A stretch of DNA of 64,000 nucleotides from an uncultured Ruficoccus sp. (GTDB lineage: Bacteria; Verrucomicrobiota; Verrucomicrobiia; Opitutales; Cerasicoccaceae). The first letter of the stretch is position 1. Each line of letters starts with the position of its first letter. Where the stretch lies: assembly GCA_965140785.1 (NCBI GenBank), contig OZ223489.1:32001-96000 (forward strand). The letters run 5' to 3'. Shown one piece after another: positions 39,092-63,173 of the stretch. The position numbers were made by a program, and so were the translations under genes. The notes below the pieces were generated by a model. The model searched no databases. It worked only from the letters and a program-made list of their open reading frames with translations, and had not been told where the DNA came from.

Positions 39092-40222
39092 ATGAGCGAA
39101 AACCACTCGCCTGAGAATCAGATTGCCGTGGAAGGCATCTTCGAACCGTCTAACAACAAGACGGGGCAACTGCTTGACCCGTCCAAAAACGGGCGGCAGC
39201 GCCATAGCGATCCCTTCATCCCCCGGGAGCTGGTCCGCCGCTTCAAGCTCAAGCGCGGCCAGTGGGTCAGTGCCAACGCCATCCACGACGGGCGCTTCCC
39301 CAATCCCAAGGTCCGCTACATCGAGGCCATCGATGGGCTCAGCGTCGAGGACCGCCGCCGGCGCTACGACTTTTCCCAGCTCACCACCATCGCCCCCAAC
39401 GAACGGCTCAACCTGGAGTGCAAGGACGGACGCCTCACCACCCGCGTAATTGACCTGTTCTGCCCCATCGGCAAGGGCCAGCGCGGCCTCATCGTGGCCC
39501 CGCCCCGCACTGGTAAGACCACCCTGCTCAAGGACATCGCCGAAGGCGTGATCGAGAATCACCCCGAGTGCACCGTCATGGTCCTACTGGTGGACGAGCG
39601 GCCCGAGGAGGTGACCGACTTCCGCCGCGAGCTGCCCACGGCCGAGATTTTCGCCTCCTCCAACGACGAGGAGCTCGAGAGCCACATCCGCATCGCCGAC
39701 ATCGCCATTGACCGGGCCAAGCGCCAGATGGAGGTCGGCAAGGACGTGGTCCTGCTGCTGGACTCGATCACCCGCCTTTCCCGCGCCCACAATGCCAACC
39801 GCAGTTCCGGGCGCACCATGACCGGCGGTCTCGACGTGCGCGCCCTGGAAAAACCGCGCCAACTCTTCTCCTCCGCCCGCAATACCGAGGAGGCCGGCAG
39901 CCTGACCATCATCGCCTCCGCGCTCATCCAGACCGGCAGCAAGATGGACGACCTGATTTTCGAGGAGTTCAAGGGTACCGGAAATATGGAAATGGTCCTC
40001 GACCGCAAGTGCGCCGAGCTGCGCTTGTGGCCGGCCATCAACATCAACTCCTCCGGCACCCGCAAAGAAGAACTGCTGCTCGACGCCAAGACCCTCGACA
40101 AGGTCGGTTTCTTCCGCCGGGCCCTGGCACCGATGAAAATCGAGGACGGCTGCGAAACCCTGATCGAACGTATGGGCAAGACCAAGAATAATGCCGAACT
40201 CCTGCGGCTGCTGGAGGGTTAG
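39092..40222 (+). CDS. rho: Transcription termination factor Rho, short form
   Basis: PIGKGQRG, APPRTGKT, DERPEEVTD, LLDSITRL, FEEFKGTGNME. Confidence 0.92.
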   Translation: MSENHSPENQIAVEGIFEPSNNKTGQLLDPSKNGRQRHSDPFIPRELVRRFKLKRGQWVSANAIHDGRFPNPKVRYIEAIDGLSVEDRRRRYDFSQLTTIAPNERLNLECKDGRLTTRVIDLFCPIGKGQRGLIVAPPRTGKTTLLKDIAEGVIENHPECTVMVLLVDERPEEVTDFRRELPTAEIFASSNDEELESHIRIADIAIDRAKRQMEVGKDVVLLLDSITRLSRAHNANRSSGRTMTGGLDVRALEKPRQLFSSARNTEEAGSLTIIASALIQTGSKMDDLIFEEFKGTGNMEMVLDRKCAELRLWPAININSSGTRKEELLLDAKTLDKVGFFRRALAPMKIEDGCETLIERMGKTKNNAELLRLLEG

Positions 40223-59572: not shown

Positions 59573-59967
59573 TCACGCACCCACCGTCAGCCGGATGTGG
59601 TTGAGGGCGTTGCTCGTGGAGACGGCTTTGCCGTCCAGCTTGATCCGATTGCCGATGAGATGGATGTGCTCGTAATCCGTGTCGTAGTGATTAACCGCTA
59701 CAAACTGCTCAAAGCCATAGTCGTCGGCTATCTGCTGAGCGAAGGTAGCCCTTTGAGCGATTCGCCCGTTTTTAAAGAGAATGCCAGATGGGCGACGGGC
59801 TTCTTGCAGCGGGAGTTCAGACCGGCAAGCTGGCCAAACTCGACAATGATGCCCTCGGGGTCCGTAGCGGAAAGGTTGCCGCCGACAATCTCCGGGCCTT
59901 TGGTCGGTTTCATGGCATAGCCCACGACTCGACCGAAGGATTCCCGATAGTTGATCCGGGCAATCAT
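59573..59967 (-). pseudogene. MOBP-type relaxase, frameshifted and truncated
   Basis: MIARI...VGY, PVAHLAFSL in one frame; HYDTDYEHIHLIGNRI (HUH) in another. Confidence 0.8.
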
Positions 59968-60215
59968 AGCCGCCCTCCTTTCTCTTGCCCAAGCAGGCTG
60001 GCCCGGATTAATGCCAGTTGTTGCCGTAGCTCGGCTAGCGTTTCCAGCACGCGCCCTGAGTTCGGACTAGCCTCGCTGATATGACAGAGGTGAGTAAGCT
60101 GGTTGAGGTTAGCCGCCACCTTGGACAACGCCCGCCACTGGTCCCCATTGATTGTTGGGATGGCCGGGCTCACCTGCACGTGGGACGCCAAGGCGGCGTC
60201 ACGAAGGAAGGTGCT
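59964..60215 (-). pseudogene. MobC relaxosome protein, 5' truncated
   Basis: STFLRDAAL and LSKVAANLNQL motifs; stop overlaps relaxase ATG. Confidence 0.75.
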
Positions 60216-60252
60216 GTGAAGAGAACCGGATATACGAGTAGGCGTTTTTCAT
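60214..60252 (-). pseudogene. N-terminal stub of a serine recombinase
   Basis: MKNAYSYIRFSSQ matches the Y-x-R-x-S catalytic motif. Confidence 0.55.
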
Positions 60253-60460
60253 GTTTTCAGTCATCATGCTTGTAGGCATATTATAAGAATACGCTCGCAA
60301 AAGCTCGCTGCCCCGGATGCCGTTGGAGTTGAAACGCGAAAACCCATGAGCCGCGAATGGCACTGATGCAAAGCTAAGAAAAGCATCTGTGTCTGTCAGC
60401 GTAATCCTCGGTTAATTTCCCGGCCATCCACACAAAGGTGAAGAGACCTTTGCTTATCCA

Positions 60461-60502
60461 AAAAACACAAAGGCCCCCCGCAGCCGAAGCTACGGAGGGC
60501 CC
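60461..60502 (-). terminator. Intrinsic terminator with C(UUCG)G loop
   Basis: Minus strand GGGCCCUCCGUAGC-UUCG-GCUGCGGGGGGCCU-UUGUGUUUUU. Confidence 0.8.
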
Positions 60503-61510
60503 TTGAAAAGTGGGAGTGGGCGTTCGCCACGCGCTCTTCCCCGATTGACGACATTAGGCGCTCTTGGCCCCGGAGGGGGGGCAGGCTGTCGTCTCCCCGA
60601 CGCTATTCCCGTTGGCATCGTACGGGTCGGCGGGCTCATAGCAGGCCCGTCAGAGAGGTTGCCCTCTCTGAGATTCTCGGGTGAGGCCTTTCAGCGCGGT
60701 TCGGCATCGTCCCCGTCGGGACAAATCGCTCGCCGCACCAGGCCGAGGTGACGCTGTCACGCCGCCTTGGCCTTGTCTCCGGGAGGTCGGCCTCCGAGCG
60801 CGAAGGCTCGGAGCGTTGGCCCCTCGGTTACGGGTCTTGCCTCTTAGGTCCTGCCTTGCGGCCCGGCGGGTCCACAGCCTTGTACGGGGCCGCTTGCCGC
60901 CGCCGGTCCAACTCCTTTTCAGGGGAATTGGCCGGGGACATCCCTCAGGAAGCATTTCGCGCCAGACAGCGCCGTCGAAGCGGTTTTACGCTCCGCCGAC
61001 GTTTTCCTGTGTGTCGGAACAATCGCGTGCGCCTTGCCCGGCGCCCGCTGTCCCGCGCCCCGTCAGCCGACCTTTTCGCGTTCCCGGAGAGGAACCTTTT
61101 GGCGACGTGCCGTCGCCGGTCGTTGGCACTGTGGGGGACTGGCTCACGGCAGCTTCTCTTCGACCCTCTTGGCAGGCGCAGGGGTCGCCGTGTATCAGCC
61201 AAAGACCCGGATACGGTCCGAGGCTTGACTCGAGTCGCGCGCCTTATCCGTTCGGCCGCTCCTCGCCTCCTTCCTTTCTTCGTGGTGGTAACCCGCAAGG
61301 TCACGACACCCGCGGGCGGAAGGGGTGACATATGCCTGAACAACCCATCGCAAGGATGTGCTGCCAGGGGCCGGAACCGCCAGTTCAGTTTCCGACCTTT
61401 GCCCGGTTACCCGGGATTATCCTAGGGATGATGGAGGTCTCCTTCTATCGTCAGGGACAAGCCCGGACGCGAATCGGAGAACCTTTTTCCCGTTCTGTCA
61501 AAGAACGAGG
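60465..61510 (-). ncRNA. Candidate ~1-kb highly structured ncRNA (possibly MISL-like)
   Basis: Dense hairpins with GNRA/UUCG loops and G-U pairs favouring minus strand; no credible CDS; flanking promoter and terminator. Confidence 0.7.
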
Positions 61511-61512
61511 AT

Positions 61513-61542
61513 AAGGTAAATGCAACAAACGCCTCCGGTCAA
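61513..61542 (-). promoter_or_regulatory. Putative sigma-70 promoter for the large RNA
   Basis: Minus strand TTGACC-N18-TACCTT preceded by an AT-rich tract. Confidence 0.4.
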
Positions 61543-61789
61543 ACAAAAAAATTGCATAAATGCCTGAAAATCACATACTTGTGAATAACTTTAACTCCAA
61601 GAAAAACGCTCCTGTTAACAAGTCTGTAACCGATTGAAGGGGATTTTATTACGAATGTTACGACGGTGAACATCTTCAGAGGCTCTAAAATGGCCCCGGT
61701 GAATAAGTTCGTAAGTCGCGTTTGAGGTGTTTTTGGGGAGCGGTTTTTTGGACAAAGCGGAGCATTTTAACGAAATAGGCCCATGAGTT

Positions 61790-61861
61790 TAACCACGGAT
61801 TACACGGATGGACACGGATAGGCTGGAAATAATCTGTGCCCATCCGTGAAATCTGTGGTTA
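61790..61861. repeat. Inverted-arm short-period element after folC
   Basis: TAACCACGGATTACACGGATGGACACGGAT ... ATCTGTGCCCATCCGTGAAATCTGTGGTTA. Confidence 0.8.
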
Positions 61862-61889
61862 AAATAGGCGTCTAGGCGACGCAATGGCC

Positions 61890-63173
61890 TCAAATCGCGT
61901 CCTGCAGGCAGCTTCCGCCGGGCACGCCGTCGGCGTAGAGGCGGGCGCAGATTTCGCCCACCAAATAGATCGACCCGGCCACCACGAGAGCCTCGTCCGG
62001 GCCGCCCGCCGCGCACTGGCCGGGTGCGGGGAACAGCTCCTCCACCGTGCTGGCGCGGACCGTCCCCTCAAAATCCGCCGGGATAAACGTCCGCAACCGC
62101 TCCGGGGTGAGGGCGCGGGGCTGGTCCGGCTGGAGCAGGACGAGCCCGCCCGCGTGGCGGGCCATGACCGGGAGCAGCGCGGCGGCGCGCTCTTCGCCGA
62201 GAATGCCGGTCAGCAGAACCGGCTTGCGTCCGGTCCGGGCGACGAGCTGGGAAAGGTTGTTCTCCAAGGCGCGGGCGCCCTCGGGGTTGTGCGAGCTGTC
62301 GAGGATGAGCAAGCGACCGTCGCGCAGCTTGACCCGCTGCCAGCGCCCGGCCCAGTCCACCTCTGAGAGCGCGGCCTCGGACACGGCCTGAGTGACGGGG
62401 AAGCGCCCTTGCAGCACCCGCACCACGAGCGAGGCGACGGCGGCATTGCGGCGCTGGAAGTCGCCTTCGAGGTTCGTCTCGGGGAAGTTCGCCTCCTCCC
62501 CGAAAGTCTCGCGCACGCTGTGAACCACGCACCCGCGCTCAGTCGCCACCGCGCGGATGACCGCCTCGGCCTCCGGCGGCAGGCAGCCGATGACAACCGG
62601 GCGGCCCGGCTTGATGATGCCCGCCTTTTCCCCGGCGATAGCGGCCAGGGTTTTGCCCAGAATGTCGGTGTGGTCCAGCCCGATCGACGTGATGACGGAG
62701 ACCTCGGGATCGACGACATTGGTGGCGTCCAGCCGTCCGCCCAATCCGGTCTCGAAAATGGCCACCTCCACCTGCTCGGCGGCGAAATGCAGCATCGCCA
62801 TGCCCGCCATGAACTCGAAAAAGGTCGGGTGGTCCTGCGCATCGGCGGAGGCAAGTTTTTCGCCCACCGGGCGCATCTGCGCCACATAGGCCTCAATCTG
62901 CGCATCGGTAAGCGGCTGGCGATTGACCTGAACCCGCTCGCCCAGCCGGATCAGGTGCGGCGAGGTAAAGAGCCCGGGGCGGTAGCCGGCGCGGCGGTAA
63001 ATGCCCTCCAGCATGGCGCAGACCGAGCCCTTACCGTTGGTCCCGGCGACGTGGATAACCGGGTAACGCCGCTCAGGATGCCCGAGGGCTTCGGCAAAGA
63101 CCGCCATGCGCTCGAGGCCGTACTTGGAGCCGCGGTTGCGCAGGCCGTAAAGGTAGCGTTCCGTCTCGGTCAT
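61890..63173 (-). CDS. folC: Folylpolyglutamate/dihydrofolate synthase
   Basis: HVAGTNGKGS, FTSPHL, ETGLGGRLDATN, EKAGIIK. Confidence 0.95.
   Translation of the reverse strand: MTETERYLYGLRNRGSKYGLERMAVFAEALGHPERRYPVIHVAGTNGKGSVCAMLEGIYRRAGYRPGLFTSPHLIRLGERVQVNRQPLTDAQIEAYVAQMRPVGEKLASADAQDHPTFFEFMAGMAMLHFAAEQVEVAIFETGLGGRLDATNVVDPEVSVITSIGLDHTDILGKTLAAIAGEKAGIIKPGRPVVIGCLPPEAEAVIRAVATERGCVVHSVRETFGEEANFPETNLEGDFQRRNAAVASLVVRVLQGRFPVTQAVSEAALSEVDWAGRWQRVKLRDGRLLILDSSHNPEGARALENNLSQLVARTGRKPVLLTGILGEERAAALLPVMARHAGGLVLLQPDQPRALTPERLRTFIPADFEGTVRASTVEELFPAPGQCAAGGPDEALVVAGSIYLVGEICARLYADGVPGGSCLQDAI

Follow-up and report, generated by a model that had tools for sequence, protein, structure and literature searches.

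The window analyzed here is a stretch of 64,000 nucleotides (nt) of contig OZ223489.1 from an uncultured Ruficoccus sp. of the Verrucomicrobiota, and the subject of this work is a region of about 1 kb on its minus strand, located downstream of a folC-like Mur ligase gene and upstream of the remains of a mobile element. An initial annotation, made from the letters of the sequence, had proposed that this region encodes an independently transcribed, large structured RNA, either a relative of MISL RNA or a member of a new class. Based on the analyses described below, the region appears to be a single-copy, free-standing gene for MISL RNA (RF03079), a large non-coding RNA of Verrucomicrobiota, with a conserved upstream region and its own terminator. 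We put the probability of this reading, identity and free-standing organization taken jointly, at about 0.9. Table 1 lists the features of the locus.

Table 1. Features of the MISL locus in window coordinates, listed from upstream to downstream.
Feature	Position	Strand	Basis or remark
Second DnaA-box-like site, TTATTCACC, one mismatch	61698..61706	-	Equivalent site conserved in the genus apart from one or two bases (TTGTTAACA, TTGTTCACA)
Perfect DnaA-box-like 9-mer, TTATTCACA	61580..61588	-	82 nt upstream of the first G of the boxA-like element (83 if counted from the next base)
Promoter-like site: -35 TTGACC (61542-61537), 17-nt spacer, -10 TTACCT (61519-61514), T-rich tract before	61514..61542	-	Sequence; conserved spacing
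Whole inferred MISL transcription unit, ~1,045 nt	60460..61506	-	Start from the conserved -35/-10 spacing; end from the terminator scan (U-run)
boxA-like element, GTTCTTTGACAGAAC, at the predicted RNA 5' end	61492..61506	-	Conserved; matches the boxA of the genome's own rRNA operon
5' leader with predicted hairpin	61423..61491	-	Between the boxA-like element and the start of the Rfam model
MISL core (RF03079 positions 1-751)	60519..61422	-	Infernal match; covariation
Lineage-specific 95-nt inserted domain, closing stem and three hairpins (predicted)	60847..60941	-	In the long-range helix, flanked by GAGGG and UAAGAGG
Short C-rich 3' tail (CACUCCCAC...)	60506..60518	-	From the end of the model to the terminator; similar across most homologues
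Intrinsic terminator: 17-pair stem (60505-60468), UUCG loop, then U-run	60458..60505	-	Terminator scan

Identity as a MISL RNA

When Infernal was run in E-value mode, the MISL model was matched over its full length on the minus strand (model positions 1-751 of 751, not truncated; 258.5 bits, E = 2.9e-77), and a covariance-model search of the whole genome returned the same match as the single copy. This is the outcome of the Rfam scan that the initial annotation had called for, and it confirms the RNA while removing its novelty as a class. MISL is already catalogued in Rfam, and the window RNA is a further member with a lineage-specific expansion. It resembles the Rfam family in all 751 positions, in the order of helices and conserved blocks, in its phylum, and in its occurrence as one copy per genome. 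It differs in its score and in a 95-nt, three-hairpin domain limited to its own family, and the transcript would add, outside the model, ~85 nt of leader carrying a boxA-like element and ~60 nt of tail with terminator.

Two results weigh against this assignment: a scan of the whole window at the Rfam gathering thresholds returned no match, and the score falls 16 bits short of the MISL gathering cut-off of 274.6 bits. A gathering cut-off is a curation threshold rather than a biological feature, and homologues from the same genus fall on both sides of it (277.5, 256.0, and 251.0 bits). We filed the window RNA as a MISL member because we take the cut-off to have been missed for a technical reason, namely the insert described below. 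Matches to RefA9, mir-639, MIR1846, sR14, and BASRCII26 (E = 2.5-6.8) were discarded as chance-level, and no Rfam match to GOLLD, ROOL, OLE, or raiA was found in the window at E-values up to 10.

Full-length MISL matches, one per genome, were present in 15 of 41 relatives (the genome of the window counted), eight of which exceed the cut-off. In a phylum-wide sample, nine of 151 genomes had one full-length match; one of these genomes lies outside the order, and eight exceed the cut-off. None of 14 control genomes had a match. We also scanned public genomes with a motif of the 3' part of the RNA, which yielded at least 120 stretches; of the 80 records listed, 76 were labeled as Verrucomicrobiota lineages. 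The remaining four are metagenome-assembled genomes labeled Bifidobacteriaceae, Bifidobacterium, Dongiaceae, and Saccharimonadales, for which mis-binned Verrucomicrobiota contigs seem more likely than a true occurrence.

Conserved Structure and the Inserted Domain

The initial annotation had described the minus strand as a chain of hairpins. All the hairpins it listed were found there, and most of them are helices of the Rfam MISL alignment, including CCCGG-GUAA-CCGGG (61402-61415), the CUCCGAGC/GCUCGGAG hairpin (60792-60813), and a 9-bp hairpin with a GCAA loop (60650-60671). Two more, a stem with a GAAA loop (60903-60935) and GCC-GCAA-GGC (60853-60862), are equally real and lie inside the lineage-specific insert. 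The comparison with dinucleotide shuffles that had been suggested also came out in favor of a structured RNA: the 904-nt core folds at -428.2 kcal/mol (z = -3.75), with none of 20 shuffles as good, and in the same comparison the opposite (plus) strand of the core has z = -1.72.

Covariation, another proposed check, was assessed on an alignment of 21 MISL sequences, 13 of them above the cut-off, and lies far above both controls. RNAalifold predicted 100 pairs, of which 73 show compensatory changes, and when three pairs of the long-range helix are counted as well, 74 of 103 pairs change on both sides. Cells of the alignment are paired at 91.9%, as compared with 73.7 ± 0.6% after shuffling (0 of 500 shuffles as high), and pairing drops to 34-44% when the 3' partner is slid by 1-3 columns. 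The middle pair of the long-range helix (740-1100) is AU in 12 sequences, GC in eight, and CG in one, and is broken in none. The MISL helices are thus kept, with compensatory changes, when the window RNA is aligned with members that score above the cut-off.

The 95-nt domain lies inside this long-range helix. All six members of the window's family carry an insert of 87-154 nt at the same place, and all 15 homologues outside the family have a single nucleotide between GAG(A/G/C)G and UAAGAGG. Infernal placed a 130-nt insertion there and lost the adjacent conserved block CCUGAGGG; this extra domain is the likely reason why the window RNA misses the Rfam cut-off. The peripheral domain is much like the expansion segments of rRNA. 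One contig from an RNA library (60826-61084, one difference) crosses the insert, and the RNA-library contigs of relatives diverge exactly at its boundary (60846/60847).

Parts of the stretch are present in 21 RNA-library runs from ~20 studies. In four metatranscriptomes, all matching contigs lie within 60510-61489; three of these four (from three studies) have contigs without any difference, and two contigs extend into the leader, to 61483 and 61489. No contig falls on 59800-60447 or 61501-62200, an observation that is not usable for placing transcript borders or for calling the neighbors silent. The weight of these data for an RNA gene is reduced by their nature: the contigs are assemblies that speak for presence in RNA libraries only, and not for ends, strand, or level, and a library may hold DNA.

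A Free-Standing Transcription Unit

The promoter-like site and the terminator with a UUCG loop, between which the initial annotation had placed the RNA, were both recovered: TTGACC and TTACCT are present at a 17-nt spacing, and a T-run follows the 17-pair stem. The distance from TTGAC to the boxA-like element is constant among the homologous loci compared, and a promoter role of the TTGACC/TTACCT site is inferred from these sequence features. The site does not appear in a simple consensus scan because its -10 hexamer fails the rule of that scan. Downstream of the boxA-like element, the leader varies in length from 38 to 304 nt among 21 loci. At the other end, inspection revealed a GC-rich hairpin followed by a T-run ~10-110 nt past the end of the model in all 20 homologous loci with downstream sequence. 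Independent transcription, as originally claimed, is thus supported by a promoter architecture and a terminator that are conserved regardless of the neighboring genes.

Two other explanations of the region as a whole have to be considered. A class of large RNA that is new and has no relation to MISL, the second option left by the initial annotation, would fit the empty default scan at gathering thresholds and an RNA that exceeds the Rfam model by ~150 nt. However, the alignment to MISL is full length, with every conserved block in order; the sequence can be aligned with 20 homologues, 13 of which score above the cut-off and one of which, at 277.5 bits, comes from the same genus; and the insert accounts for the shortfall in score. 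The "MISL relative" option therefore stands, and we give a new class hardly any chance. Alternatively, the region could be protein-coding, or the long 3' untranslated region or operon tail of the folC-like gene, as open reading frames (ORFs) run across it on both strands (215-225 aa on the plus, 132 aa on the minus), and in the genus folC is found upstream in the same orientation. But these ORFs have no Pfam match, their frames are interrupted by two to three stops in same-genus homologues and by up to seven in the family, and the insertions and deletions do not come in threes, in agreement with the early judgement that they are not coding. The folC-like gene is the upstream neighbor in only five of 21 loci (four members of the genus and one other genome), a terminator-like hairpin and a repeat element follow it in the window, and MISL has a conserved promoter region of its own. 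A coding region or folC tail is thus very improbable, and the free-standing MISL gene remains the reading that we adopt.

A boxA-Like Element at the Predicted 5' End

The 15-nt element at the predicted start of the RNA follows the -10-like hexamer by 7 nt, and is consequently expected at about +1 to +15 of the transcript; the RNA-library contigs end at 61489. It is present in all 21 aligned loci and in 64 of the 69 further loci from the public-genome scan that have enough upstream sequence, and 12 of its 15 positions are invariant among the scan loci. Its first 12 bases are identical to the boxA in the 16S-23S spacer of the same genome (12/12). In the single rRNA operon (rrn) of this genome, GTTCTTTGAAAGTTA precedes the 16S gene by 130 nt and GTTCTTTGACAGTTC lies within the 16S-23S spacer, which are the classical places of boxA, and GTTCTTTGA(A/C)AG occurs at the canonical rrn leader and spacer places in this genome and in four relatives.

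The motif is also rare elsewhere. GTTCTTTGANAG occurs five times in the 4.36-Mb genome (~1.1 expected), once each in the leader and the spacer of rrn and at MISL, plus two other places, and the full GTTCTTTGACAGAAC form is unique. In the four relatives, a 15-letter boxA pattern gave 12 matches (four MISL 5' ends, five rrn leaders or spacers, and three elsewhere), as compared with five for a reversed-pattern control, so that across the five genomes few copies of the motif lie outside rrn and MISL. The accessible part of Baniulyte et al. (2017; PMC5725501) gives GYTCTTTAANA as the gamma-proteobacterial boxA consensus and leaves non-coding RNAs out of consideration. The MISL element fits this consensus at 10 of 11 positions, and the sole mismatch is common to the rrn boxA of its own genome. 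Genes for NusB and Rho are present in the genome.

These likenesses lead us to favor, with some reserve, a model in which MISL transcription starts at or beside an rrn-type boxA and is subject to Nus-factor antitermination as on rRNA operons. In this model, the nascent RNA would load NusB/NusE and other Nus factors, with whose help RNA polymerase would escape Rho-dependent termination over ~1 kb of structured RNA that is not translated; folding of the RNA might profit as well. In the rrn system, boxA acts with NusB and NusE as well as NusA, NusG, and SuhB. Besides the 12-base motif shared with its own rrn leader and spacer, the MISL locus resembles this system in having a TTGAC-type promoter-like site just before the element, a T/A-rich tract upstream, and a long untranslated structured RNA after it. 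It differs in the placement of the element at the predicted +1 and in its self-complementary 3' flank (AGAAC).

A few observations on related sequences are recorded here. The rRNA leader of the same genome (contig C10, upstream of 16S; L151, ~980-1400) contains three tandem promoter-like modules, each with an A-rich tract, TTGACG, and a conserved TCTTCTTTATGGGC, and each followed by a boxA-like word (GTTCTTTAAAAG, GTTCTTTTCAAG, and GTTCTTTGAAAG). A few boxA-like words outside rrn and MISL were located at G000:C40:63847, G000:C47:94643, G007:C1:2428397 and 3024553, and G001:C1:1478646; the C40 site, found where a 509-aa open frame begins, could be a Nus-regulated leader. Within the window, a 422-aa open frame has a weak match to the Rho RNA-binding domain at 39128-39286 on the plus strand (23.5 bits, under the Pfam cut-off of 27), and is separate from the main rho gene on contig C23. 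A leader-trailer helix of the kind seen in rRNA precursors was considered for MISL and rejected, as the duplex partners were inconsistent and mostly terminator sequence.

DnaA-Box-Like Sites Upstream of MISL

Upstream of the promoter-like site are sequences that resemble DnaA boxes. In the 21 loci, perfect TTATNCACA occurs 15 times in 8.4 kb of upstream sequence (400 nt per locus, with at least one in 11 of the 21 loci), and not once in 17.4 kb of RNA body or 50.1 kb of the other flank. With one mismatch allowed and 600 nt taken upstream of each locus, the density is 5.0 per kb and every locus has at least one site, as compared with 0.29 per kb in the RNA body, 0.39 per kb in the other flank, and 0.385 per kb across the genome of the window. 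In 13 of 21 loci a box precedes the 5' element by 82-83 nt, and in 15 the distance is 80-83 nt. The window's box at this position is the perfect 9-mer, whose GTTATTCACAAG form occurs once in the genome.

A second set of loci was drawn from the public-genome scan. The 3' motif was found again in 79 of the 80 listed loci, and 58 have a recognizable start and 5' element; species of this set may overlap with those of the first. In the 300 nt upstream of these 58 loci, the density was 9.1 per kb with one mismatch allowed, including 35 perfect boxes, as compared with 0.38 per kb and no perfect box in the RNA, and 0.15 per kb and one perfect box in the other flanks. Taken over the two sets, the upstream enrichment is 13- to 60-fold over the flanks and the RNA body. 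The upstream regions of rrn showed no enrichment of boxes.

The identical perfect 9-mer is also present 27-34 nt before the dnaA start codon in all four genomes that have sequence upstream of this gene, and one of the four (G039) has six boxes in the 1 kb before dnaA. In the genome of the window (contig C33), TTATTCACA lies 34 nt before the dnaA start, with the same place occupied in three relatives, which fits dnaA autoregulation. The MISL boxes are like those of such DnaA-box promoters in that they fit TTATNCACA and have an identical counterpart before dnaA in the same genomes, but differ in that the target is a large non-coding RNA and the boxes are placed upstream of the -35 instead of overlapping the promoter. 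DnaA-type boxes at fixed upstream positions would make MISL synthesis depend on DnaA status, in other words on replication initiation or growth. Judging from these sequence patterns, binding of DnaA at the boxes is inferred, and we see about an even chance that the boxes link MISL synthesis to DnaA status. Titles and the beginnings of abstracts retrieved for DnaA boxes together with Verrucomicrobia included none on the boxes of this phylum or on MISL.

With regard to the chromosomal position, the distance between MISL and dnaA is 156, 281, and 563 kb in three genomes; in a fourth it is ~220 kb (an approximate value, based on a rounded genome size), the genomes being 2.6-5.8 Mb in size. MISL is thus not at the origin itself and may be origin-proximal, for which four related genomes are weak evidence. 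No 300-nt window with more than four boxes was found in the genome of the window, where the dnaA contig is only 10 kb long and hence uninformative on oriC-like clusters.

Other Explanations of the 5' Element and the Upstream Boxes

Several observations speak against the Nus-factor and DnaA interpretations and bear on the alternatives to them. The 5' element is self-complementary (GUUC...GAAC), with AGAAC in 58 of 64 loci, unlike the rrn copies, which end in TTA or TTC, and it lies at the very 5' end of the predicted RNA, while the rrn boxA is situated deeper in the leader. No boxB or boxC was recognized at MISL, and no conserved leader-trailer helix was found when the leader was compared with the first 30 nt past the model in 20 loci. 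Since the bases of the element never vary, covariation can prove neither a hairpin nor boxA. The element might therefore be a 5'-terminal stabilizing hairpin, or an operator for another protein, with its likeness to rrn convergent or coincidental. Yet the element shares an uninterrupted 12-base stretch with the spacer boxA of its own genome, and the motif is nearly limited to rrn and MISL; the putative stem would have only four pairs, with position 5 usually unable to pair with position 11; and a plain stabilizing hairpin should covary rather than stay invariant across the phylum. We regard such a hairpin or operator as possible but doubtful, and an rrn-type boxA as the better explanation of the element.

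As for the boxes, those of the window's own genome would not stand out by themselves: there are three in ~280 nt upstream of MISL, a density equalled at many other places, and because of this the case rests on conservation across genomes. In the second locus set, moreover, a box at -90 to -75 is present in only 20 of 57 loci, other lineages favoring other positions and the opposite orientation. The TTATNCACA boxes could serve another factor, or form a DNA site that titrates or reactivates DnaA beside a strongly transcribed gene. They lie ~35-250 nt upstream of the -35, arrayed and in both orientations, resembling clusters of DnaA-binding sites as much as operators, and the distances from dnaA in the four genomes would make MISL origin-proximal in most. 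On the other hand, in 13 of 21 loci one box is kept at a fixed distance from the promoter, as would be expected if it made contact with the transcription machinery, and the boxes accompany MISL whatever its neighboring genes. A role other than transcriptional control by DnaA is in our view the less likely one, and we retain control of MISL synthesis by DnaA as the working interpretation.

Neighboring Genes and Absence of MISL in Some Genomes

Outside the five loci with a folC-like gene, the neighbors of MISL include helicases, tRNA synthetases, transporters, and others, and no target-like neighbor is conserved. Just past the MISL terminator in the window (59573-60191) are an ORF for MobC (75 aa) and one for a truncated relaxase (139 aa, partial domain), which bears out the decayed mobile element noted earlier. 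In two species of the same genus, MISL is instead followed by a gene for an FKBP isomerase, and for this reason the mobile-element remnant was probably inserted downstream of the window's MISL. At 61794-61857, past the end of the folC-like gene and before the MISL upstream region, is an imperfect palindrome of six ATCYGTG/CACRGAT heptamers. Tandem pairs of these heptamers occur 58 times on 16 contigs of the genome; the palindrome looks like a dispersed repetitive extragenic palindromic (REP)-like repeat and is possibly the terminator of folC.

The distribution of MISL argues against an indispensable role. The covariance model did not find it in 10 of the family's 16 genomes, one of the 10 being a species of the window's genus, and a BLAST search of five of these 10 genomes with the 1,046-nt stretch gave only a 31-nt match (E = 0.0096). 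In the same-genus species, whose genome is 97% complete, the syntenic site consists of folC, ~250 nt, and then the FKBP gene, with no MISL. Because this species lacks MISL, the role of the RNA would be dispensable or replaceable, and not essential. The sister species without MISL is a natural knockout for comparison.

Implications for the Function of MISL

The best reading of the locus is that of a stable trans-acting RNA that would be made in the manner of rRNA, with a strong promoter, boxA/Nus antitermination, an intrinsic terminator, and, in addition, DnaA-box control. As conservation is concentrated in junctions and loops, the helices covary, and no target-like neighbor is conserved, MISL could be a stable scaffold or the core of a ribonucleoprotein, not an antisense regulator, a guess that we hold to be evenly balanced. 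More speculatively, an RNA made like rRNA and, unlike rrn operons, wired to DnaA might be a stable RNA of Verrucomicrobiota that is coupled to growth or replication, possibly at the core of a ribonucleoprotein not yet described, with lineage-specific expansion domains that would behave like the expansion segments of rRNA.

Among other large bacterial RNAs, GOLLD, ROOL, OLE, and raiA are similar to MISL in size class and in their dense conserved structure, but are phage- or Firmicutes-associated, whereas MISL is chromosomal, single-copy, and confined to Verrucomicrobiota. GOLLD and ROOL form multimers. The MISL motif reportedly stems from the supplement of the 2017 study by Weinberg and colleagues. 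The name MISL is absent from the main text of that paper (Weinberg et al., 2017), and earlier remarks on the promoter, boxA, or DnaA boxes may stand in its supplement. Our literature search returned no paper that joins MISL, Verrucomicrobia, and RNA motif. In the Ribonanza preprint, MISL RNA is used as a test molecule from Rfam.

As the discovery of an RNA class, the present finding has little weight, since MISL is already in Rfam. It does indicate that MISL genes of the window's family, with their expansion domain of 95-154 nt, escape the Rfam cut-off, and that annotation pipelines would leave the gene blank. The boxA-like 5' element provides a concrete handle on how a 1-kb untranslated RNA may escape Rho. 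The array of DnaA boxes, found in two sets of loci and absent at rrn promoters, points to a possible coupling to replication or growth, which would be a first handle on the function of MISL.

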